From the NCBI GenBank assembly GCA_041665505.1, contig JBAYIR010000003.1, positions 45,363-109,362 of the forward strand: a stretch of DNA of 64,000 bases, written 5' to 3'. Positions within the stretch are counted from its first letter, which is position 1, and every line of letters starts with the position of its first letter. The position numbers and the translations under genes are program-made. Origin of the DNA: Patescibacteria group bacterium. GTDB taxonomy: Bacteria; Patescibacteriota; Patescibacteriia; UBA1558; GWA2-36-10. Shown piece by piece: positions 1 through 41,700 of this stretch. A model generated the notes under the pieces. That model was not told the DNA's origin and did no database searches. It saw only the letters and a list, made by a program, of their open reading frames with translations.

Positions 1-710
1 CCATATTAGCCAAGGCATCTACAGCTAATTCGGGTCTAGAGGTCCAAACTCATAATCCTTACCTAATGTTGGCTATTGGTGTAATTGTGTTTTTGGTAGC
101 CACCTATGTGCTTTGGAACATGGGTATAGCTGATAAGATAGCTTCTTATTTAAATAAATGGTATCTAACAAGTAGTACGGGAATATATACTAGATTTTTC
201 TTTGGTATGTTGATGTTGGGAGCTTCTGTCACTGCTCTTTTGGGTTTAGAACCAGTTTTGGGAGCTTTTGGTATCGGAGTAGTACTTTCTAAAGTAGACG
301 ACAAAATCAAACACGAAGCTTGGGAAAAAATTGAGGGCTTTATGCATATTTTCGTCGGTGCTTTTTTGGTCAGTATTGGTACAATGTTACCTCGTGCCTC
401 TTTGGTAAATTTTAAAGTTTGGTTGTGGGCAATATTATTTACGGTTTTAGCTTTTGTTGGTAAATATTTGGTTAAATATTTATTTAAAAATAAGCAAGAT
501 GGTAACTTAGTTGGTTTGGCTATGACTATTCGTGGTGAAGTTGGTTTGGTATTTGTGGCGGTAGCTTTGGCTAATAAGGCCTTAGATGAGACCATGGCTG
601 CTGCTGCACTACTGGCAGTAATTTTGGTGACAGTAGCTGGGGCTATAATTTTTGAAAAAGCAGTGATGAGAGAAACAAAATTGGAGAAAACGCAGAATAT
701 TGAAGCTTAG
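1..710 (+). CDS. Cation:proton antiporter (Na+/H+ exchanger family), C-terminal part. The reading frame is open back to the window edge, so the gene is probably 5'-truncated; first in-frame ATG is at 66.
   Basis: The frame carries no stop from position 3 to 710. The translation is polytopic membrane protein with a GLAMTIRGEVGLVFVAVALA motif typical of the second half of CPA1/CPA2 exchangers. 214 aa is only about half of a normal exchanger. Confidence 0.6.
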   Translation, partial: ILAKASTANSGLEVQTHNPYLMLAIGVIVFLVATYVLWNMGIADKIASYLNKWYLTSSTGIYTRFFFGMLMLGASVTALLGLEPVLGAFGIGVVLSKVDDKIKHEAWEKIEGFMHIFVGAFLVSIGTMLPRASLVNFKVWLWAILFTVLAFVGKYLVKYLFKNKQDGNLVGLAMTIRGEVGLVFVAVALANKALDETMAAAALLAVILVTVAGAIIFEKAVMRETKLEKTQNIEA

Positions 711-1773: not shown

Positions 1774-3405
1774 ATGGAAAATTTGGAAAATAATAATCAA
1801 GTCAGTAATACTTCAGAAAGTCAAATTAAGGCAGTTGATCCACAACAAAATATTCCTATACCTCAAGCTTTAGAGGAGAGGATAGCTCAACAAGCCACTA
1901 AAGGCAATCATTCTAGAGCTAGAATATGGTTGCTGGTTTCAGTAGTGGTTTTATTTGTTTTAGTCGGTGTAGGAGGTTTTTGGTATTATGCCCAAGGTCA
2001 AGCTTGGTTATTGCTCAGACAAGCCAAATGGTCTTGGGGTGATAGTACTTTAGAAAATTATCAGCAAGATACTAATTTATCATTGGCTATTAGTACTAGT
2101 GGTAATAGTGATCAACCGGCTGCAGCCAGCACACTCTTAGGTGGTAAAAAATTTGACATAGATATCACTACTCAGCAAAAAAATATAGCCACTAATATGG
2201 AGGCAGATATAAATCTTAAAGCTAAATCAGATAATGTAAATTTTGATATTAAACTTAAGACCAAAAAAATAGATGATAAACTTTATTTATTTATTGATGT
2301 GGGTGATATTAAAGATTTGTTGGGCGGTTTAGTACCAGTACCAGATTTTGGTGACACTTGGTTAGCAACTGATATTAAAAATTCTTATAATATTAGTTTA
2401 GATAAAGCCAAAGAAACTAAAGTCAATACAAAATTTAATGAATTTTTGGATAAATTAATAACGGAGAGAGTTTTTGATATCAAGGACCTTAAAAAAGATC
2501 AAAATGGCTTTAGAAAAATACAATTAAATGTTAAAGCCAATAAAATTGATAATTTTATATTATCGACTATCAACTACGGAGCAGATATTTATGAAATAGT
2601 TTCGGAAGTAGATGAAGTAGATAAAGATTCTTTAACTTACAAGAATTATAGAGAAGAAAATATCAAGAATTTTGAAAAAATGAAAACAGACAAGCCAGCT
2701 GAATGGGAAAAAATGAAAACAGCCTTGGTTAGTATAGATTTTATGATTTTATTGGATGAAGACACCAAAATAATTCATGGTCTAGAGCTATATTTAAATA
2801 ATGTAGTTTTTGATTCAGCTGGTGTTTCCACTACTGTTTTAGGCAATATAAAATATTTGATTAAACCTATTGAGGCTTATCAGATAATCAAGCCTACTAA
2901 TGTCAAAGAGATTGGTGACTGGCAAGAAATTTTTACTCCGACTCTAGTTGAACCAAATGAGACAAGCTATTTTTCTGATGATGTTGACAGTGACCAAGAT
3001 GGTTTGAGTGATTTGGCAGAATCTCTTTATGGTACCCAGATAGATAATTCTGATAGTGATGGTGATGGTTATTTAGACGGTCAAGAAGTGGATAATGGTT
3101 ATAATCCCATGGGGGAGGGCTCTTTGGATAAAGAAAAATTAATTGATAAAAATTATGCCTATCAGCAAGCCACTAAAGCTAGAAATATATGTGAAGAGGA
3201 TGGGGGTTTATGGAAATATGATTTCGATTTTAATACCATAGATAATATTATAGCTATAGATGATAAATGTTATGAGTATAAGGATGCCTTATCTTGCCAA
3301 AGTGATAGTAATTGTGTTTTTAACGGGGGAGAATGTTTTATGAATATTTGCCAGTGCCCAGTTGGTAAAATATTTGATCTGCGTGAACTGAGTGGTTGTA
3401 AATAA
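1774..3405 (+). CDS. Membrane-anchored secreted protein with thrombospondin type-3-like Ca-binding Asp-rich repeats and a Cys-rich C-terminal module
   Basis: Single N-terminal TM (IWLLVSVVVLFVLVGVGGFWYYA). DxDxDG motifs (DSDQDGLSD, DSDGDGYLDGQEVDNGYNP). Nine Cys in the last ~80 aa. Confidence 0.6.
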   Translation: MENLENNNQVSNTSESQIKAVDPQQNIPIPQALEERIAQQATKGNHSRARIWLLVSVVVLFVLVGVGGFWYYAQGQAWLLLRQAKWSWGDSTLENYQQDTNLSLAISTSGNSDQPAAASTLLGGKKFDIDITTQQKNIATNMEADINLKAKSDNVNFDIKLKTKKIDDKLYLFIDVGDIKDLLGGLVPVPDFGDTWLATDIKNSYNISLDKAKETKVNTKFNEFLDKLITERVFDIKDLKKDQNGFRKIQLNVKANKIDNFILSTINYGADIYEIVSEVDEVDKDSLTYKNYREENIKNFEKMKTDKPAEWEKMKTALVSIDFMILLDEDTKIIHGLELYLNNVVFDSAGVSTTVLGNIKYLIKPIEAYQIIKPTNVKEIGDWQEIFTPTLVEPNETSYFSDDVDSDQDGLSDLAESLYGTQIDNSDSDGDGYLDGQEVDNGYNPMGEGSLDKEKLIDKNYAYQQATKARNICEEDGGLWKYDFDFNTIDNIIAIDDKCYEYKDALSCQSDSNCVFNGGECFMNICQCPVGKIFDLRELSGCK

Positions 3406-3488: not shown

Positions 3489-4817
3489 TTATTTAATATA
3501 GTTTAGAGGATTTTTCTTTGCTTCATTAACTCGTACTTCAAAGTGAAGATGTGGTCCAGTAGACCGACCAGTTGATCCTACCAAGGCAATAGTTTGACCA
3601 CGCGAAACTGAATCACCAGCTGATACTAATACTTTGCTAGCATGCCCATAAAGAGTTTTCAGGCCATTACCATGATTTATTATTACATAATTTCCATAAC
3701 CACCACTATTCCAGCCAGCTTTTTCTACTTTACCAGCCTCAGCTGCATAGATTGGATTGCCAGTTTTGTCACCAACATCTAAACCAGAATGACCCCAGTG
3801 GTAGTATTGAGTAATTTTATGACTAAGCAAAGGCCAGAGTAGCTTGGTACCAGTATTTACATCATCAGCATCGGGCGGTATGACATTGGAGCTACTGTTG
3901 GAGCTACTATTTGATTTAGGAGGAGTATATGAGGATACTATTTTAGTCGGAGGTACACCATCAGGAATAAATAACATATCACCAATACTAATATCAGATG
4001 AATCAGCTAGTTTATTAGCGGCTACAATTTTTTCTGCTTCAGTTTGATATTTTTTGGCTATAGCCAAAATTGTGTCACCTGATTTTACTTTATGATTAAT
4101 ACCAGAATCTTGTAAGATATTTAATTTTTGACCGGCACGAATAGTGCTATTCCAAGTCAAATCATTTTCCCATAAAATAGTATTGGCTGATACACCAAAT
4201 TTTTCGGCAATACTACCTATGACATCGCCTGCTTGGACAGTATATTCAACTAATTTGGTTCTAGATATTTCATTTGGTGTTTCACTAGAGTCAAGGGTGT
4301 CTTCTGGACTAAGTAGTACCAAGCTAGATGAATCTGGTGACACCCCAGCTCCCAAATCTTCTTCTTCTGCAAAAGGAGTGGCTACCACCAATTGTTGTAA
4401 GGCCCCTTGTTCATCTAGATAATTTACTACTGGAGCTTGATTTATAGCCGGACCAGTTTCTTCTATTAATTCACTCCAAGAAGCTGTTTCATCTTCACTA
4501 GCGGGTATGATATTGGATAAGAGAGTGCGATTGGCGTATTCGTCAGTACTATAATTTTGAGCAAATATATTATTGGTAGTGACTGATATAATGATAATAA
4601 CAATAATGGCACTCGGTAAATATTTTTTAACCAGTATAATATAGTTTATATTGTCAAATTTTATATTTTTGGATTTTATCCTTATTTTTAGGATATTTCT
4701 ATAAACTAGTAGTATACTAGGTAAAAATGTATATTTACCTAGCCAAAGTAAAGATAAACCAAAAAAGGCACCTAATTTTAGCGATTTATTGTATAAATAA
4801 ACCAAGGTGTCGGCCAA
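3489..4817 (-). CDS. M23-family metallopeptidase with two LysM domains (cell-wall hydrolase). The N-terminus or start codon is uncertain.
   Basis: C-terminal M23 signature (GLDVGDKTGNPIYAAEAGKV ... GYGNYVIINHGNGLKTLYGH ... GSTGRSTGPHLHFEV). Two LysM-like segments (YTVQAGDVIGSIAEKFGV and HKVKSGDTILAIAKKY). Hydrophobic signal-like segment SAIIVIIIISV. Confidence 0.85.
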   Translation of the reverse strand: MADTLVYLYNKSLKLGAFFGLSLLWLGKYTFLPSILLVYRNILKIRIKSKNIKFDNINYIILVKKYLPSAIIVIIIISVTTNNIFAQNYSTDEYANRTLLSNIIPASEDETASWSELIEETGPAINQAPVVNYLDEQGALQQLVVATPFAEEEDLGAGVSPDSSSLVLLSPEDTLDSSETPNEISRTKLVEYTVQAGDVIGSIAEKFGVSANTILWENDLTWNSTIRAGQKLNILQDSGINHKVKSGDTILAIAKKYQTEAEKIVAANKLADSSDISIGDMLFIPDGVPPTKIVSSYTPPKSNSSSNSSSNVIPPDADDVNTGTKLLWPLLSHKITQYYHWGHSGLDVGDKTGNPIYAAEAGKVEKAGWNSGGYGNYVIINHGNGLKTLYGHASKVLVSAGDSVSRGQTIALVGSTGRSTGPHLHFEVRVNEAKKNPLNYIK

Positions 4818-35553: not shown

Positions 35554-37632
35554 TTATTCCAAATGAGTTTCGGTTTTTAGAGTATTGATAGTTTTTTGGA
35601 GATCTTGTCGCTCTATATATTTTTGATCAGTCAATATTTCCTGAGCCCATAATTGGGCTTTTTTGATTAGGTTGACATCTGATAATTTGGCTATTTTTAG
35701 CTTGATTAAGCCCGTTTGTTTATTACCGAATATTTCACCACTACCGCGCAGTTCTAGGTCCAAATCAGCCAATTTAAAGCCATCATTGCTTTGACACAGT
35801 GCCTTAAGCCTCTTGGTATTTAGTTGAGAATGATCGCTAGTAAATAGCATACAAAAACTGGCCAAGTTATTCCTGCCAATACGACCTCGGAATTGGTGTA
35901 ATTGGCTCAGTCCAAATCTTTCAGCACTTTCAATAATCATAATAGTAGCTCCAGGAATGTCTACCCCTACTTCAATTACCGAAGTAGCTACCAAAATGGG
36001 AAATTTATTATTTTTAAAATCTTCCATTATTTTTTCTTTGGTTTCAGATGGTAATTTACCATGTAGCATCCGGATATCTAAGTTCGGGAAAATTTCTTGA
36101 CTGAGCTTTTGGTATTCAGCTGTGACTGATTTGACACCCAATTTGTCGCTGTCATCTATCAAAGGACAAATAACAAAAACTTGTTCTTGTTTTTGTATTT
36201 TTTCCAATATAAATTTATAAGCGTCAGACCGTTTACTATCAGGCACCAAAAAAGTTTTTATATCTTGCCGACCGGCTGGTTTTTCTTGAATCAGGGATAT
36301 GTCCAAATCTCCATAAAGAGTCAGAGCTAGAGTGCGAGGAATAGGAGTGGCCGTCATAGATAAAAGGTGTGGTGCTTTATTATCTATATTTTTATCTTTG
36401 AGAGCTTTTCTTTGTCTGACACCAAAGCGGTGTTGCTCATCTATAATGACTAGGGCCAGGTGCTTAAAATTTACTTTTTCTTGAATCAAACTGTGCGTGC
36501 CAACGACAAATTTTATACTAGCTTGGGCTATTTTTTGACTTAGTATCTTTTTGCTGATTTCTTTATCATCACCCAATTTTTGGCTGCTGCTAGTCAGTAG
36601 TGCTAAGTGGGGGAGATATTGATTTGGTAATAGTTTTTTGATACTAGTAAAATGCTGTTTGGCTAGTATTTCAGTGGGAGCCATTAGAGCTACTTGCAGT
36701 CCGCTAGCTATGACACTTAAAGCGGCCAAAATAGCTACTATAGTCTTACCAGAGCCAACATCTCCTTCTACTAGTCTATTCATTGGTACGGCCTTGTTTA
36801 AATCAGCCAAGATATCATAGAGGCTTTTTTGCTGATCCAAGGTCAATTGCCAAGGCAAATCTTTTATGATTTGGTTGGTCAATTTATTGTCTAGTGGTAT
36901 TTGGTAAGTAGCTTGTGATTGATAATTTTTCTTGGCCAATTGGTATTTTATTTGTAAATAAAATAATTCTTGGAATTTTAATCTATTGCTAGCTTTATTT
37001 AGAGCCTTTTGGTCAAGAGGGAAATGAATCGTCTTAAGGGATTCTTCTAGCCAAGGGTATTTTTCTTTGTTTAATATTTCTACTGGCAGAGGATCATCTA
37101 AACTAGGTAGTTCTTTGATAGCTTTGTTTATCAAAAAACGTAGTTGTTTTTGGGTGATTTTGCCACTCAAATGATAAATTGGCACCAAGCGGCCGCTATG
37201 GATAGGGTCTATTTTTGTTTTTTCATAATTGGGGCTGACAAATTGCCAAAGAGATTTTTTGGCTTTTACTTTACCACTCAAATAGACCTCATCACCTACT
37301 TTTAGTATTTGAGAAATAAATTTTTGTCTAAACCAAATAGCTTCCACTTGACCGCTGGCGTCTTCAGCCAATATTTCTGTTATCATCATTTTGGCTCGCC
37401 AAGCACGATAAGTTTTTATTTTTATTATTTTGACAAAGACACTATTTACTTCTTCTGGATCAATGTCTTTGATTTGTTTTATTTCAGAGAGGTCAGCATA
37501 GCGGTAGGGGAAATACCAAAGAAGATCGCCGATAGTGTGGATGTCCATTTTTTTTAAATCACTAGCAAGATTGGCTGCTATAGCATGCAGATTTTTTATA
37601 TCCAAGTTCCAATTTAAAATCGCCTTGCTCAT
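35554..37632 (-). CDS. recG: ATP-dependent DNA helicase RecG
   Basis: N-terminal wedge/OB region. Helicase motif I VEGDVGSGKTIVAILAAL, DEQHRFG (motif II), and C-terminal helicase motifs; 692 aa. Confidence 0.9.
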   Translation of the reverse strand: MSKAILNWNLDIKNLHAIAANLASDLKKMDIHTIGDLLWYFPYRYADLSEIKQIKDIDPEEVNSVFVKIIKIKTYRAWRAKMMITEILAEDASGQVEAIWFRQKFISQILKVGDEVYLSGKVKAKKSLWQFVSPNYEKTKIDPIHSGRLVPIYHLSGKITQKQLRFLINKAIKELPSLDDPLPVEILNKEKYPWLEESLKTIHFPLDQKALNKASNRLKFQELFYLQIKYQLAKKNYQSQATYQIPLDNKLTNQIIKDLPWQLTLDQQKSLYDILADLNKAVPMNRLVEGDVGSGKTIVAILAALSVIASGLQVALMAPTEILAKQHFTSIKKLLPNQYLPHLALLTSSSQKLGDDKEISKKILSQKIAQASIKFVVGTHSLIQEKVNFKHLALVIIDEQHRFGVRQRKALKDKNIDNKAPHLLSMTATPIPRTLALTLYGDLDISLIQEKPAGRQDIKTFLVPDSKRSDAYKFILEKIQKQEQVFVICPLIDDSDKLGVKSVTAEYQKLSQEIFPNLDIRMLHGKLPSETKEKIMEDFKNNKFPILVATSVIEVGVDIPGATIMIIESAERFGLSQLHQFRGRIGRNNLASFCMLFTSDHSQLNTKRLKALCQSNDGFKLADLDLELRGSGEIFGNKQTGLIKLKIAKLSDVNLIKKAQLWAQEILTDQKYIERQDLQKTINTLKTETHLE

Positions 37633-37693
37633 TTGTGATGTTTTAATAAGCTGGACATGTATTGCCCAGCTTAGTTTTTTGCTTTTTTATATT

Positions 37694-38263
37694 TTATAAT
37701 TTTAGGATTTTTGTAATGCTTTCGCTAGTCGGAATTTCTTCTTTTTTTGTGTCTTCCTCTAGATACTGGAGTAGTATTTGGCGGATATAGACTGGGTTTT
37801 CATTTTCCAAAGGAATTACTATTCTTTGTTTGAAGAAACTTTTTGTTTCTAGATATAGATTTTTTATTTCTGGGGGGTAATATATTATGTAGAAAGCACG
37901 AAAATCTTCATAAGGGATAAATTTACTGCCAATAAATATACCGTCTTCGGTGATTGCTGTTTCTACAGTGACGGGCTCAGCTTTAGCTGAGCTTAGGTAA
38001 ATTATAGCAAAGATAGCCAGGATAATAGCAAAGAGTAGATTATTAGAAAAATAAGAATAAATTAATAGAGCTAAAAATATAACAATAAAACCTATATACC
38101 ATAATTTACTTCTTTCATATTTTATGAATTCAGGAAAATCCCAAAGGGCCAAAATTCTTCCATAGTCACTTTCTAGAGGGTCTAAAGTTTCTGCTTCTTC
38201 AATTTTTTCCTCTATTTTTGGCTCTTGGCTAGTGTTTTTTTTAGCTTTAGTACTTTTTGGCAT
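37694..38263 (-). CDS. Hypothetical membrane protein. The start is likely the internal MPKSTKAKK rather than the 38335 ATG.
   Basis: Two TM helices and a charged N-terminus. Bounded by recG and the tRNA cluster. Confidence 0.45.
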   Translation of the reverse strand: MPKSTKAKKNTSQEPKIEEKIEEAETLDPLESDYGRILALWDFPEFIKYERSKLWYIGFIVIFLALLIYSYFSNNLLFAIILAIFAIIYLSSAKAEPVTVETAITEDGIFIGSKFIPYEDFRAFYIIYYPPEIKNLYLETKSFFKQRIVIPLENENPVYIRQILLQYLEEDTKKEEIPTSESITKILKL

Positions 38264-38387
38264 ATTTTTTATTATATATATAAGTTTATTATAACATATT
38301 CGTTGCATTTCTACCATTGTTGTAGCTCTTGTCAAAAATGATATAATATACTATTATATACCAGTCTTTTATCTTATGGAGAGTTGG

Positions 38388-38444
38388 CAGATCCCGCAGG
38401 GCGGGACCCCGCTACGCGGGGGCGGCTTAAAAAGTTCTTGAGTC
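38388..38444 (+). repeat. Miniature copy of the tRNA-Ser-targeting element: a 14-nt duplicate of the tRNA-Ser(TGA) 5' end plus a 43-nt GC-rich double hairpin
   Basis: ggagagttggcaga is identical to nt 1-14 of the downstream tRNA. It is followed by tcccgc-agg-gcggga and ccccgc-tac-gcgggg hairpins. About 90% identical to the copy at 38847-38903. Confidence 0.6.
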
Positions 38445-38470
38445 TTTGGAAAGAATAATTTATTTTATAT

Positions 38471-38558
38471 GGAGAGTTGGCAGAGCGGTCGAATGCGGCG
38501 GTCTTGAAAACCGTTGAGCCGAAAGGTTCCGAGGGTTCGAATCCTTCACTCTCCGCCA
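38471..38558 (+). tRNA. tRNA-Ser (anticodon TGA), long variable arm, encoded CCA
   Basis: Manual cloverleaf: 7-bp acceptor GGAGAGT/ACTCTCC, anticodon loop CTTGAAA, long extra arm, T-arm GAGGG-TTCGAAT-CCTTC. Confidence 0.9.
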
Positions 38559-38692
38559 TTCGATTCCGTCGCGTATGACGCGACTTCACTCATGGCCTTC
38601 GGCCACTTATTTGGTATATAAAGTGATAAGTTGTCGAATGTCCTGAGCGATCCCGAGCATAGCGAGGGAGAGTCGAAGGGCAGGAGTATATT
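38553..38692 (+). repeat. Repeat R1 copy 1 (~95-nt well-conserved core within a ~140-nt span), immediately 3' of tRNA-Ser(TGA); second copy at 62189-62320
   Basis: About 93% identity over attccgtcgcgtatgacgcga ... ggccttcggccacttatttggtatataaagtgataagtt.tcgaatgtcctgagcga. Contains a gtcgcgt-atg-acgcgac hairpin and a ggcc-ttc-ggcc hairpin. Confidence 0.7.
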
Positions 38693-38727
38693 ACCGATAG
38701 GCAGTAGTTACTTTGTTTTTTTATCAT

Positions 38728-38803
38728 GTCCTCGTAGCTCAATGGATAGAGCGTTTGGTTGCGGTCCAAAAGGCTGCAGGTTCGATTCCTGCCGGGGACA
38801 CCA
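38728..38803 (+). tRNA. tRNA-Arg (anticodon reads GCG), encoded CCA
   Basis: Manual cloverleaf: acceptor GTCCTCG/CGGGGAC, D-stem GCTC/GAGC, anticodon stem TTTGG/CCAAA with loop TTGCGGT, T-arm GCAGG-TTCGATT-CCTGC. Confidence 0.8.
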
Positions 38804-38846
38804 CACTTCGCTAAAGTAAGGTTGTTTATTAAAATTTATTTATTTA

Positions 38847-39186
38847 GGAGAGGTGGCAGATCCCGCAAGGCGGGACCCCGCTACGCGGGGGTGGCTTAAA
38901 AAGCTTACTGTTATGTATAAAGTTTATATTTTACAAAGTATTAAATATAAAATATATTATATAGGGCATACTAAAGATATAAATGATAGAATGAGCAGAC
39001 ATAATAGTGGGGGATCGTCTTATTCAAAAAAATTTATGCCTTGGAAATTGATTTATACTGAATTTTATAATACTAAATCGGAAGCTTATAAAAGAGAGTT
39101 AGAAATTAAAAGTTATAAAGGTGGTATAAAATTTAAAAAGTTGATAGGAGTTTGGGAAAAATAGTTTATTAAAATTTATTTATCAT
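38847..39186 (+). mobile_element. GIY-YIG nuclease cassette inserted into the 5' region of tRNA-Ser(GCT), duplicating ~35 nt of target
   Basis: attaaaatttatttat plus ggagaggtggcaga occurs both at 38825-38860 and at 39168-39200 (the true tRNA start). Between the two copies lie the conserved GC-rich double hairpin and an 83-aa GIY-YIG ORF. Confidence 0.45.
38913..39164 (+). CDS. Small GIY-YIG (URI-domain) nuclease, UPF0213/COG2827-like
   Basis: YKVYILQSIKYKIYYIGHTKDINDRMSRHN ... YKRELEIKSYKGG shows the GIY-(x10)-YIG and R..HN motifs. The upstream in-frame ATG at 38853 lies in the GC hairpin, so it is unlikely to be the start. Confidence 0.75.
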   Translation: MYKVYILQSIKYKIYYIGHTKDINDRMSRHNSGGSSYSKKFMPWKLIYTEFYNTKSEAYKRELEIKSYKGGIKFKKLIGVWEK

Positions 39187-39276
39187 GGAGAGGTGGCAGA
39201 GTGGTCGAATGCGGCACCCTGCTAAGGTGTTATCCGGGAAACCGGATCGAGGGTTCGAATCCCTCCCTCTCCGCCA
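39187..39276 (+). tRNA. tRNA-Ser (anticodon GCT), long variable arm, encoded CCA
   Basis: Manual cloverleaf: acceptor GGAGAGG/CCTCTCC, anticodon stem GCACC/GGTGT with loop CTGCTAA, long extra arm, T-arm GAGGG-TTCGAAT-CCCTC. Confidence 0.9.
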
Positions 39277-39365
39277 CATCGAGCTAGCACGAGGATCTAG
39301 AGAGACTCGAGCGCTCGAGGATGTAAAAAACAACTTCTTTATGAAGCTGTTTTTTTGTTTAATAA
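39277..39365 (+). repeat. att-like segment plus terminator directly 3' of tRNA-Ser(GCT); related copies at 41860-41975 and 62315-62375
   Basis: Shared agctagcacgagga core and a conserved aaaaaacaacttctt..gaag..gttttttgtt hairpin/T-run terminator module. Confidence 0.55.
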
Positions 39366-39369
39366 ATTA

Positions 39370-40044
39370 TTAAGTATTTTCTGGTTTTATCACACCATCT
39401 TTAAGCCAAATGACTCTGTCTACGTGTTTTCTATCATCTAATTCATGAGTGACCATGATGATAGTCTGACCAATTTCTTTATTAAGTTTTTTGAATAATT
39501 TTAAAATTGTTTCTGATGATTCACTATCCAGATTTGCTGTCGGTTCATCGGCAAATAAAATAGCCGGATCGTTTACTAAGGCCCTGGCAATAGCTACTCT
39601 TTGTTGTTCTCCACCAGACATTTCTTTTGGCAGATGATATATACGTTCACCAAGCCCAACTTTTTCTAACATTTCAGTGGCTTTCTTAATGTATTGGCTC
39701 TTGGATGCACCAGTGAGCATAAGTGGTAAATAGACTGACTCAAGAGCGTTTAATTCTGGTAATAAAGCATAAGACTGAAAAACGTAGCCTAATTTTTTTA
39801 AACGAAATTCACTTTTTTGCTTTTCCGTAAATGATACTATATTTGTACCATCAATAATAATCTGACCTGCCGTAGGAGAATCCAAAAGACCAAGTTGGTG
39901 AAGAAGTGTAGATTTACCAGAACCACTTCGTCCCATAAGAGCAATAAATTCACCTTTTTTTACGCCAAAACTGACCTCTTTAAGTGCATAAGTTGGAACT
40001 TTTCCTTCGTATGTTTTTTTTAATTTTTTTACTTCAATAATCAT
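39370..40044 (-). CDS. ABC transporter ATP-binding protein (MacB/FtsE/LolD-like). The start is taken at the internal MIIEVKKLKK; the 40128 ATG would overlap the permease.
   Basis: Walker A GRSGSGKST, Q-loop, signature LSGGEQQRVAIARAL, Walker B ILFADEPT, and H-loop. Confidence 0.85.
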   Translation of the reverse strand: MIIEVKKLKKTYEGKVPTYALKEVSFGVKKGEFIALMGRSGSGKSTLLHQLGLLDSPTAGQIIIDGTNIVSFTEKQKSEFRLKKLGYVFQSYALLPELNALESVYLPLMLTGASKSQYIKKATEMLEKVGLGERIYHLPKEMSGGEQQRVAIARALVNDPAILFADEPTANLDSESSETILKLFKKLNKEIGQTIIMVTHELDDRKHVDRVIWLKDGVIKPENT

Positions 40045-40063
40045 TTGTGTTTTATTATTAGGT

Positions 40064-41278
40064 TTAGCCCCATATTGAATCAAGGATACTTTCTTTTGTA
40101 CCTCGAAATGCTGGTATAAAACCACCAATTAAAGCTGCTACCATAAGACTAATATTACTTATTCTAATTATATTAAAGGTGATTTTTAGTGATACCCAAC
40201 CGACTGGAAAATCCAAAGGATTATCTATAAAAAATGGCCGAACAAGAAATAATATTATACTGACACCAAGAATAATTCCAATAATGGCATAAAATATAGC
40301 TTGCATAACAAAAGATAAAATTATAGTATTTTCTTTCATTCCGATAGCTTTTAGTATTCCAATTTGTCGTCTTTTGTTTACAATACTAACAAAAATAATA
40401 ATAAATATGGTAATTCCTGCCACAACAGTACCAATTGCTCCTAAGATAATACTAATCATAGTAAAGCTCTTGCTGGCGCTAGAAGTAAAGCCAGTTAGTT
40501 GTTTCCAAGTCTTTATATCTTCATCGTGTAAGCCTGCTTGTCTTATTTGTTCTATATATTTTTCTTCTTGCCCTTTTTCGTCAATTTTTACTATTATTTC
40601 TGAAGCTAAATTATAGACATGGAGAACTGACTCCATTTCTTTTGTAGTAATAAAAGCCATTTGATCTGCTTGGCTATTTTTTGTAGAAAAAATACCTTTG
40701 ATAGTATAAGTTCTTTTTATACCATTGCTAAATTTAACATCAATTTGATCACCAACATACACACCTCCTAAGCTAAGATAATCTAGATCTCCACCATGGC
40801 TGCCAGCAATTTCTTTTCCGATAACTATCTTATCTCTATCGTTGTCTTCTAAATATTCACCCTCAATTATAGAATCACTAATTTTGGTTACCTGTGTTTC
40901 ATCGGCTACATCCACTGATTTTATGAGCCATTTTCCTTGCTGAACATCACGACCATCATGATTTTCATCATAGCTAATAGCAGTATTATTTATATAGTGA
41001 GCAGAACTAGCGACTATTCCAGGTATTGTGTCTATAGAATTCATAGCATCTTTATTTTCTATATAAATTTCATCATCAGCTGGAGCTATTACAATGTTAC
41101 TATATAGATTATTTATTGATTGTTCATTAATAGCTTCAACAATTCCACCAAAGACAGATGAAATAAAAATTAAATTAACATAAGCCAAGGTCATGATAAG
41201 TATGGTCATAGCTAGAGTACCTTTGTTGCCCCGAATAATTGATGTTCGAGCTAGAAAAAAAGAAGCTTTAATATTCAT
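40064..41278 (-). CDS. ABC transporter permease, FtsX/MacB-like
   Basis: N-terminal TM, a large extracytoplasmic domain, and three C-terminal TMs (FtsX-fold topology). Immediately upstream of the ATPase. Confidence 0.75.
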   Translation of the reverse strand: MNIKASFFLARTSIIRGNKGTLAMTILIMTLAYVNLIFISSVFGGIVEAINEQSINNLYSNIVIAPADDEIYIENKDAMNSIDTIPGIVASSAHYINNTAISYDENHDGRDVQQGKWLIKSVDVADETQVTKISDSIIEGEYLEDNDRDKIVIGKEIAGSHGGDLDYLSLGGVYVGDQIDVKFSNGIKRTYTIKGIFSTKNSQADQMAFITTKEMESVLHVYNLASEIIVKIDEKGQEEKYIEQIRQAGLHDEDIKTWKQLTGFTSSASKSFTMISIILGAIGTVVAGITIFIIIFVSIVNKRRQIGILKAIGMKENTIILSFVMQAIFYAIIGIILGVSIILFLVRPFFIDNPLDFPVGWVSLKITFNIIRISNISLMVAALIGGFIPAFRGTKESILDSIWG

Positions 41279-41280
41279 TA

Positions 41281-41700
41281 TTATTTGTTATTAACCAATA
41301 AAGATAGTTTTTTTAAGATTAATATAAAATCTCGACGTTCTTTGGCTGATAAAAGAGACAACCTCTTATGTAAATGTTTTTTTGATTTCGCAAAACCTGC
41401 CTGTAATTCCTTTTTACCTTTATTACTAATACCCAAACGAACTATTCGTTTATCATCAGCATCATAAACACGCTTAACTAGCCCTAATTTTATTAGGTTG
41501 TTTACCAAGAAGGTAGCAGATGGTGGAGTGATATTTAGATACTCAGCGACATTTTTCATTATTGGATTTTTTTGATGTAAAATAAAAGACAAGGCTTGTA
41601 ATTGAATATAAGATGGGGAACCCTTTTCATGTTCCATACCTTCTTTGGTTAATCTATTCATTGTAAATACCAAGTCAATTAGTTCGTCTATGTCGGGCAT
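41281..41700 (-). CDS. MarR-family transcriptional regulator
   Basis: Winged-helix region LSFILHQKNPIMKNVAEYLNITPPSATFLVNNLIKLGLVKRVYDADDKRIVRLGIS; 139 aa. Confidence 0.8.
   Translation of the reverse strand: MPDIDELIDLVFTMNRLTKEGMEHEKGSPSYIQLQALSFILHQKNPIMKNVAEYLNITPPSATFLVNNLIKLGLVKRVYDADDKRIVRLGISNKGKKELQAGFAKSKKHLHKRLSLLSAKERRDFILILKKLSLLVNNK

Follow-up and report, generated by a model that had tools for sequence, protein, structure and literature searches.

A candidate homing-type GIY-YIG nuclease cassette with double hairpins in partial copies of tRNA genes of Patescibacteria and other bacteria

Mitochondrial mobile open reading frames (mORFs) accompanied by a duplicated gene end are described for atp6 of Allomyces macrogynus and for atp6, atp9, cox2, and nad3 of Glomus (Paquin et al., 1994, via PMC3630166); in the cases summarized there, entry of the mORF leaves the native gene end behind as a displaced fragment and sometimes gives rise to hybrid genes (PMC3630166). 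In the current study, we describe a similar arrangement at two tRNA-Ser genes in a 64,000-nt stretch of DNA from a Patescibacteria group bacterium (contig JBAYIR010000003.1 of assembly GCA_041665505.1; this whole stretch is hereafter called the window). Each gene is intact and is preceded by a partial copy of its own 5′ end into which a pair of GC-rich hairpins is set, and at one of the two loci an 83-aa open reading frame (ORF) for a putative GIY-YIG nuclease lies between the partial copy and the intact gene. The two loci are probably the complete and the gene-less copy of a selfish, homing-type "mobile ORF" cassette that resides inside tRNA transcription units.

Judged by analogy, the mitochondrial mORF is the closest described parallel. 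As far as the mitochondrial cases are summarized in that source, both systems place an endonuclease ORF beside an essential gene whose disruptable part is present twice, as a functional copy and as a displaced fragment; both occur in filled and empty states among close relatives, and the present loci, as the mitochondrial cases sometimes do, may combine parts from different lineages. The present loci differ in that the host is bacterial, the target is a tRNA rather than a protein-coding gene, and either the 5′ or the 3′ part is duplicated. Moreover, the ORF encodes a catalytic domain of ~80 aa that is not fused in frame to its target, its product is a putative nuclease that would cleave the empty site, and the fragment, in most cases the same in sequence as the functional copy, has conserved hairpins set into it. 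The hairpins themselves recall the double-hairpin elements and GC clusters of fungal mitochondria, which are likewise GC-rich two-hairpin modules of AT-rich genomes, highly conserved across species, situated in or next to structured RNA genes, and suspected of mobility (Paquin and Lang; PMC10085805, PMC2800124). This likeness is one of architecture, and the hairpins described here, unlike those elements, are not dispersed, lie in partial tRNA copies at loop positions, and are tied to one nuclease family.

Among GIY-YIG enzymes, SegB of phage T4 is a homing enzyme encoded in a tRNA gene cluster and can amplify tRNA segments (PMC2330249, PMC13096335). The free-standing Seg genes of T4-like phages are GIY-YIG genes among tRNA genes that spread without an intron by nuclease-induced recombination, as the cassettes would; however, Seg proteins exceed 200 aa, possess DNA-binding domains, are phage-borne, and come without partial tRNA copies or hairpins. 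Genes for rRNA in bacteria of the candidate phyla radiation (CPR) contain insertions, belonging neither to group I nor to group II introns, that lie at the tops or bases of stem-loops and carry GIY-YIG ORFs (PMC11270868). The host group and the placement of GIY-YIG ORFs in structured-RNA genes are common to both, but those insertions interrupt the rRNA gene, whereas here the functional tRNA stays whole and a partial copy carries the insertions; the likeness is one of context. The closest class by sequence is that of the UPF0213/YhbQ/SLX1 structure-specific nucleases, which are also small and consist of the catalytic domain only. To our knowledge, no linkage to tRNA genes, partial gene duplication, or associated hairpins has been reported for this class, and our literature search found none described. 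Nor did the same full-text search, or the relevant papers on Patescibacteria, turn up an account of GIY-YIG genes that are nested at tRNA genes of bacteria and accompanied by partial tRNA copies, which does not by itself prove novelty; a selfish element that lives inside tRNA genes without breaking them is apparently undescribed.

The two tRNA-Ser loci and their double hairpins

Three plus-strand tRNA genes, for Ser(TGA), Arg(GCG), and Ser(GCT), were identified in the region by ARAGORN and Rfam (Table 1), and both tRNA-Ser genes are uninterrupted and contain no Rfam intron family, so that neither a group I nor an archaeal tRNA intron is involved. The first 14 nt of each tRNA-Ser gene are repeated exactly upstream of that gene, as the original prediction had noted, with the feature starting at 38378 and not, as first given, at 38388. 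Every 14-mer is directly followed by two 15-nt hairpins, TCCCGCNNNGCGGGA and CCCCGCTACGCGGGG, with 6-bp stems and 3-nt loops, behind which nt 15–18 of the cognate tRNA resume; the same resumption is seen in L014, L031, and L007 (L-numbers are labels of loci in other genomes or metagenome contigs). The hairpins therefore sit inside a longer partial tRNA copy. The co-variation of each copy with its cognate tRNA, which had been recognized for the 14-mer, thus extends to nt 15–18, and the clean 14-nt target duplication ending at the hairpin that had been proposed does not hold, since the hairpins interrupt a longer copy, which reaches nt 18–50 in homologous loci.

Table 1. Features of the tRNA-Ser(TGA)–Arg(GCG)–Ser(GCT) region, in window coordinates.
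Feature	Position	Strand	Basis or remark
Promoter-like site TTGTCA-17-TATTAT	38329..38357	+	10/12 consensus match, weak evidence; 5′ of the Ser(TGA) partial copy
Partial copy, tRNA-Ser(TGA) nt 1-14, GGAGAGTTGGCAGA	38378-38391	+	Exact; native position, adjoins native upstream flank
Double hairpin, TGA locus	38392-38421	.	Between tRNA nt 14 and 15 of the partial copy
GCGG = tRNA-Ser(TGA) nt 15-18	38422-38425	+	Partial copy resumes 3′ of the hairpins
ORF-less spacer, CTTAAAAAG...TTATAT, 45 nt	38426..38470	+	With hairpins, GCGG, and one 14-mer, 93 nt absent from L107
Intact tRNA-Ser(TGA)	38471-38558	+	ARAGORN, Rfam
tRNA-Arg(GCG)	38728-38803	+	ARAGORN, Rfam
Upstream flank of the GCT partial copy (first AT-rich flank copy)	38822..38846	+	Repeat comparison
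Partial copy, tRNA-Ser(GCT) nt 1-14, GGAGAGGTGGCAGA	38847-38860	+	Exact
Double hairpin, GCT locus	38861-38890	.	29/30 identical to that of the TGA locus
GTGG = tRNA-Ser(GCT) nt 15-18	38891-38894	+	Directly 3′ of the hairpins
83-aa GIY-YIG nuclease gene, intact	38913-39164	+	Between the duplicated flanks, GCT locus
Second AT-rich flank copy	39162..39186	+	Adjoins intact tRNA-Ser(GCT); overlaps the ORF stop codon
Intact tRNA-Ser(GCT)	39187-39276	+	ARAGORN, Rfam

At the GCT locus, the duplication of the AT-rich upstream flank was borne out (38822–38839 versus 39162–39179, 17/18 identical), as was the GIY-YIG ORF between the duplicates. The TGA locus has no ORF; the tRNA-proximal end of its spacer is similar to the GCT-locus flank (repeat, 76%), and its similarity to the 3′ end of the ORF is marginal (p ~0.04). 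An origin of the TGA unit by internal deletion between two TTAAAAAG repeats was rejected, the similarity being marginal at p ~0.04 and MAFFT placing the gap elsewhere. This unit had been called a gene-less, MITE-like (miniature inverted-repeat transposable element) derivative, and only the first part of that description can be retained: the palindromes are internal, there are no terminal inverted repeats or dispersed copies in the window, and the duplicated tRNA segment varies from 18 to ~50 nt across loci where a MITE would show a target duplication of fixed length.

The double hairpin, predicted to span ~43 nt, is indeed nearly identical at both loci, but the pair itself measures 30 nt, within a wider 68-nt repeat of 88% identity. 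A 33-nt pattern spanning the hairpins occurs at only these two sites in 64 kb, with 0 expected by chance, and the window contains no dispersed intergenic copies, both occurrences being inside tRNA copies. Against the 35% GC of the window, eight GC-rich islands (at least 70% GC over 30 nt) were found; both hairpin blocks rank among the three longest and are the sole mutually similar pair of the eight. When 21 double hairpins were compared, 98.4% of cells were paired and 5 of 12 base pairs showed compensatory change, neither value being reached in any of 500 shuffles, and the stems do not differ among loci at which the synonymous sites of the ORF have reached saturation. The palindromic hairpins are thus conserved in both sequence and pairing and are under selection. 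As a short GC-rich two-hairpin module conserved across species, they have the form of a double-hairpin element.

Whether this selection acts on RNA or on DNA was addressed through strand asymmetry. A small alignment had hinted at G.U pairs confined to the sense strand, and hence at a function of the sense-strand RNA hairpin; across 51 inserts the bias disappeared (35 versus 31 G.U pairs, with the better-folding strand divided 23 versus 23). This symmetry speaks against a structure that exists purely at the level of RNA and matches the expectation for a DNA palindrome. A predicted helix closing the hairpins, formed by the 14-mer and GYGGCUU, was also rejected: its registers differ between the loci, and the T/G and C/T differences are not partners. 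When the window region was compared with Rfam allowing E up to 1, and four loci under the gathering thresholds, only tRNAs and spurious sub-threshold plastid and sX4 matches were returned.

The 83-aa protein matches the GIY-YIG family of Pfam (PF01541, E 2.3e-16) over residues 2–67 of 83. In 24 homologues, Y5, Y16, G18, R26, H30, N31, and E62 never vary, and all catalytic residues of the GIY-YIG domain are invariant. The annotation of one Patescibacteria metagenome-assembled genome includes an identical protein, and other homologues are 55–81% identical. Profile searches against the PDB returned the UPF0213 chains 1zg2 (E 7.5e-12) and 1ywl (4.3e-10) and the SLX1 nuclease domain (2e-6); the NCBIfam and phage-family libraries gave no match, and a defence-system library gave only two marginal ones (E 0.003–0.005), neither meaningful. 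The Pfam match covers nearly all of the protein, and there is no additional DNA-binding domain of the kind that gives I-TevI and the Seg proteins a long recognition site. Judged from its sequence, the protein is a member of the UPF0213/SLX1-like subfamily consisting of the catalytic domain only. The ratio of nonsynonymous to synonymous substitution (dN/dS) relative to the closest homologues is ~0.15, with synonymous sites saturated; the gene is therefore under purifying selection and functional.

Recurrence at tRNA genes in other bacteria

The first sign that the arrangement is general came from database homologues of the protein, several of which have over-called N-termini (P0002, P0012, P0020, P0039, P0044, P0065, P0082, P0100, and P0103). 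Their Arg/Pro/Gly-rich extensions (MERSHSG...LVPQSGMPLRGRK, ...PAQRDPA...) are the translated tRNA 5′ end together with the GC-rich hairpins. A protein-alignment scan of metagenome contigs yielded 80 loci with 73 non-redundant homologous ORFs, 66 of which adjoin a tRNA on the same strand, the remaining 7 lying near a contig end; wherever a locus has a tRNA, the nearest one is always on the strand of the ORF. The association of this nuclease family with tRNA genes, as originally proposed, is thereby supported, and its supposed restriction to tRNA-Ser is not: Tyr(GTA) and the four Ser isoacceptors account for most of the neighbouring tRNAs, Thr for some, and Pro for one, and Cys and Ile are found among the targets as well.

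To map the partial copies, the 220 nt preceding each ORF were aligned with the tRNA of that locus, and a detectable partial copy of the adjacent tRNA accompanies 59 of the 73 ORFs. At these 59 loci, as in the window, a nuclease ORF lies between overlapping intact and truncated copies of the target gene, in both orientations, which is the layout of an mORF. A 5′ partial copy begins at nt 1 and ends at nt 18–50, the ATG following 0–25 nt further on. Of the 51 loci with a 5′ partial copy only, to which two loci with copies on both sides are to be added, 48 have GC-rich inserts; the insert positions cluster after tRNA nt 14–16 and 19–25 (both in the D-loop) and 34–37, those in the anticodon loop falling after TG and before (T/G)AAA, and some partial copies hold two insertions. 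The mirror layout, comprising intact tRNA, ORF, 3′ partial copy, and terminator, occurs in L052, L063, L073, and L087, with hairpins in the anticodon loop or T-loop of the 3′ copy, and combined layouts are found in L069, L050, L091, and L106. The insertion regions therefore extend beyond the D-arm, the region originally proposed. In L063 (2740–2870) and L073 (2745–2900), the duplicated unit consists of the tRNA 3′ part, the trailer/terminator, and the first codons of a truncated second ORF, so that whole units of tRNA part and ORF have been tandemly duplicated there.

The distance from the ORF stop codon to the tRNA is frequently 0–30 nt, and in one genome of the Melioribacteraceae and one of the Bacteroidota, which show the same design, the ORF stops inside the tRNA D-loop. 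With so short a gap, or with the stop inside the tRNA, a single transcript that starts upstream of the partial copy must cover both ORF and tRNA. The nuclease stop codon lies in the D-loop of the downstream tRNA in L104 (1740–1765) and L106 (1800–1826), where processing by RNase P could leave a non-stop mRNA and limit nuclease expression.

A search for the hairpins independent of the protein, using one genome per species, returned 8 loci, 7 of them inside partial tRNA copies: five after nt 14 of a tRNA-Ser copy, one inside a tRNA-Cys copy, and one in the T-loop of a tRNA-Ile 3′ copy, the eighth being a likely chance match in a GC-rich genome. Hairpin type correlates with both protein clade and tRNA type. 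No relatives of the protein and no hairpins were found in viral contigs, and carriage by phages was dropped as an explanation.

Two further loci deserve mention. [quoted passage not shown] In L007 (~2100–2450, minus strand), an intact tRNA-Cys lies between 16-nt inverted repeats and seems to sit within the anticodon loop of a tRNA-Cys pseudogene that is diverged and full-length and has hairpins at 14/15 and 34/35, further 3′ tRNA fragments lying beyond.

Filled and empty sites and exchange of tRNA segments

The original prediction of an accessory element that leaves an intact tRNA called for a search of relatives for empty and filled tRNA-Ser sites, and both were found. In L107, where the neighbouring DUF5673 protein is 92% identical to that of the window, a near-identical upstream flank is joined straight to an intact tRNA-Ser(TGA), an exact empty site. 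Behind nt 14, the window is 93 nt longer than L107; the surplus is made up of the 30-nt hairpin pair, 49 nt comprising GCGG and the 45-nt spacer, and the second 14-mer. The partial copy thus occupies the native position on the native, promoter-like flank, and the intact tRNA is displaced downstream, behind a flank resembling that of the GCT locus; an element-borne "guide" role for the tRNA copy is accordingly disfavoured. For the GCT site, the Ser(TGA), Arg, and Ser(GCT) genes of L109 form the same cluster, spaced by 0 and 25 nt, and have neither hairpins nor ORF, and L096 and L098, whose ABC ATPase is 96% and 89% identical, have a tRNA-Ser(GCT) with no hairpins or nuclease gene upstream; L042 is a filled version of the L109-type tRNA. 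The unit is therefore an insertion/deletion polymorphism among close relatives at the same sites, as is characteristic of homing genes.

The partial copies are closely similar to their neighbours, with 28 of 55 perfect and 96% identity overall, which is striking beside the age of the protein divergence. In L021, L022, L029, L038, and L050, the partial copy represents a different variant of the same isoacceptor, and in L032 and L067 the partial-copy types are swapped. The tRNA-Ser(GCT) of the window differs from its orthologue in L109 (2333–2422) at 6 positions within D-arm nt 10–26 and at only 1 of the remaining 64 nt, and at the differing sites its D-arm matches the window's own tRNA-Ser(TGA), so that by sequence it looks like a mosaic or hybrid gene. 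Together, the copy variants and the D-arm differences would fit an exchange of tRNA 5′ segments along with the cassette, without proving it; in the window, where partial copy and intact tRNA are identical, native and incoming origins are indistinguishable. A resistant allele, suggested by GTGGTC versus GTGGCT after the hairpin site, is not general, as L011, L056, and L082 keep GTGGCT in the intact tRNA.

Two neighbouring stretches of the window also differ among relatives. The 169-nt spacer between tRNA-Ser(TGA) and tRNA-Arg(GCG) (38559–38727), which is 0 nt long in L109, folds strongly (−57 kcal/mol, z −3.5), starts with the T-loop-like TTCGATTCC, and contains the D-loop-like AGTTGTCGAATG; possibly, tRNA fragments and hairpins like those of the cassettes have decayed there, and a motif at 38640–38685 within it was not found in the other loci. 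Downstream, at 39277–39369, the end of tRNA-Ser(GCT) (..CGCCA), a palindromic trailer centred on GCTAGC, and a terminator are kept beside the ABC ATPase gene. This tRNA end and trailer are conserved in the 96%-identical relatives L095, L096, and L097 (~3676–3760), everything upstream differs, and in L095 and L097 the body of tRNA-Ser(GCT) has been lost at this site; the 3′ end of the gene is a rearrangement or integration breakpoint.

Possible origins of the cassettes and what they would mean

The reading that we favour, a homing-type cassette, draws, among other things, on two features of the arrangement: the nuclease gene is framed by a partial copy and an intact tRNA in the same orientation, frequently without room for a promoter of its own, and the hairpins are confined to the partial copies, at loop-coding positions. 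We propose that the nuclease would stimulate recombination at tRNA genes and that the cassette would bring or create a duplicate of the tRNA part that it would otherwise disrupt, such that one functional tRNA is always restored, a step modelled on the mitochondrial mORFs that duplicate the end of the invaded gene. The displaced native 5′ part would then supply promoter and leader for the nuclease gene. The hairpins would act at the DNA level, as candidate recognition or immunity sites of the nuclease or, alternatively, as heterologies that survive gene conversion and prevent clean deletion of the cassette by recombination between the tRNA repeats, and the ORF-less TGA unit would be a derivative that has decayed or depends on functions in trans. 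In heteroduplex DNA, the repair of palindromic heterologies is inefficient. As a hypothesis only, this could explain why the hairpins persist while their flanks homogenise, and, equally hypothetically, the hairpins may in this way block clean recombinational loss of the cassette.

Several points weigh against a homing cassette. The nuclease has no known cleavage activity or target, and the protein lacks the DNA-binding domain typical of site-specific homing enzymes. The intact tRNA presents the very sequence that flanks the hairpin site, which leaves its immunity to the nuclease unexplained. At the TGA locus, T7 in both copies and a GCGG that matches the cognate tRNA are not predicted by a simple copy-in from the GCT locus, and the difference between L107 and the window is equally explained by a precise deletion in L107. 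The near-identity of the copies requires a recent origin, ongoing gene conversion, or selection for identity; protein conservation and clustering by tRNA type could instead come from old, vertically inherited paralogues. Finally, with no copies in viral contigs, no vector can be named.

A bolder variant holds that the SLX1-like nuclease and the palindromic hairpins form a structure-guided system whose substrate would be the loop positions of tRNA genes when these fold, as DNA, into cloverleaves, a variant that we regard as speculative and rather unlikely. Under such a system, the hairpins may be functional modules rather than scars, for example recognition sites of the enzyme, or they may be "poison pills", in that deletion of the cassette downstream of a hairpin would leave a dead single-copy tRNA gene. 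Because palindromic heterologies escape repair, cassette loss would then yield a dead tRNA, and the host would be addicted to the cassette.

Among the rival explanations, the hairpins could themselves be small mobile palindromic elements that enter loop-coding tRNA DNA and are tolerated only in redundant tRNA fragments, with the GIY-YIG gene serving as a trans-acting enzyme or being a mere co-resident, since it creates such fragments. This has real support in the hairpins without a nearby ORF (the tRNA-Ile 3′ copy of L013, the tRNA-Cys of L007, and the window's TGA locus) and in hairpins nested inside the loops of other hairpins (L069, L060, L074, and L094), and both the identity of stems across loci with synonymously saturated ORFs and the several insertion positions possible within one partial copy agree with it. 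Nevertheless, the confinement to tRNA copies, complete in the 64-kb window and seen in 7 of the 8 genome matches, is unlike the usual dispersal of such elements, hairpin type tracks protein clade and tRNA type, and no insertion mechanism is known; we therefore judge this explanation unlikely. A role in the service of the host, in which a tRNA-mimicking 5′ untranslated region controls translation of a domesticated nuclease, transcript stability, or tRNA maturation, with the nuclease as a tRNA-gene-linked housekeeping factor, appears quite improbable. The co-transcription of ORF and tRNA (gaps of 0–30 nt, and a stop inside the tRNA in L104 and L106), the strong conservation of hairpin pairing, the identity of the copy to its cognate tRNA, and the purifying selection on the protein would all be accommodated by it, but the unit is absent from close relatives, neither the frequency of G.U pairs nor the folding energy differs between the strands, 3′ copies with hairpins are found downstream of the ORF or tRNA, where a leader role cannot apply, no Rfam family matches, and the helix closing the hairpins is unsupported by covariation. 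The more specific leader suggested at the outset, whose 14-mer would compete for the acceptor 3′ strand, is likewise not supported, in view of the same absence from close relatives and lack of sense-strand bias and because the co-variation reaches unpaired D-loop and anticodon-loop bases.

The loci might also be attachment-site leftovers of integrase islands or prophages at tRNA genes, with an unrelated small ORF caught between them. The status of tRNA-Ser(GCT) as a rearrangement hotspot in L095 and L097, the repeated 3′ fragments in L098, and a serine recombinase gene beside the tRNA in L001 point in this direction; however, the window duplicates the 5′ end of the tRNA and not its 3′ end, the units measure just 93–340 nt, no integrase gene lies in or next to the window's units (36000–41500), and more than 60 independent loci share this ORF family and these hairpins. 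Such an origin is largely refuted and, in our view, highly improbable.

Integrases classically land in the 3′ end of tRNA genes, and introns use the anticodon loop. What sets the present arrangement apart is a catalytic-domain-only GIY-YIG gene that would borrow the tRNA promoter, keeps the tRNA intact by partial duplication, and leaves the spare copy marked by conserved palindromes at loop positions, in a design that recurs across Patescibacteria and also in Ignavibacteriota and Bacteroidota genomes. If a homing-type cassette is confirmed, it would represent a widespread family of selfish elements hidden in annotation as "GIY-YIG nuclease family protein", would give the large UPF0213/YhbQ class its first clear genomic context, and would account both for tRNA genes of hybrid or mosaic make-up and for the N-terminal extensions over-called in the annotation of metagenomes. 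The way in which homing elements enter essential, single-copy RNA genes of reduced genomes would likewise become open to a tractable test, and a structure-guided mode of action, if true, would be a new route for selfish DNA into the essential RNA genes of very small genomes. The cassettes would constitute a bacterial counterpart of the mitochondrial mobile ORFs and double-hairpin elements.

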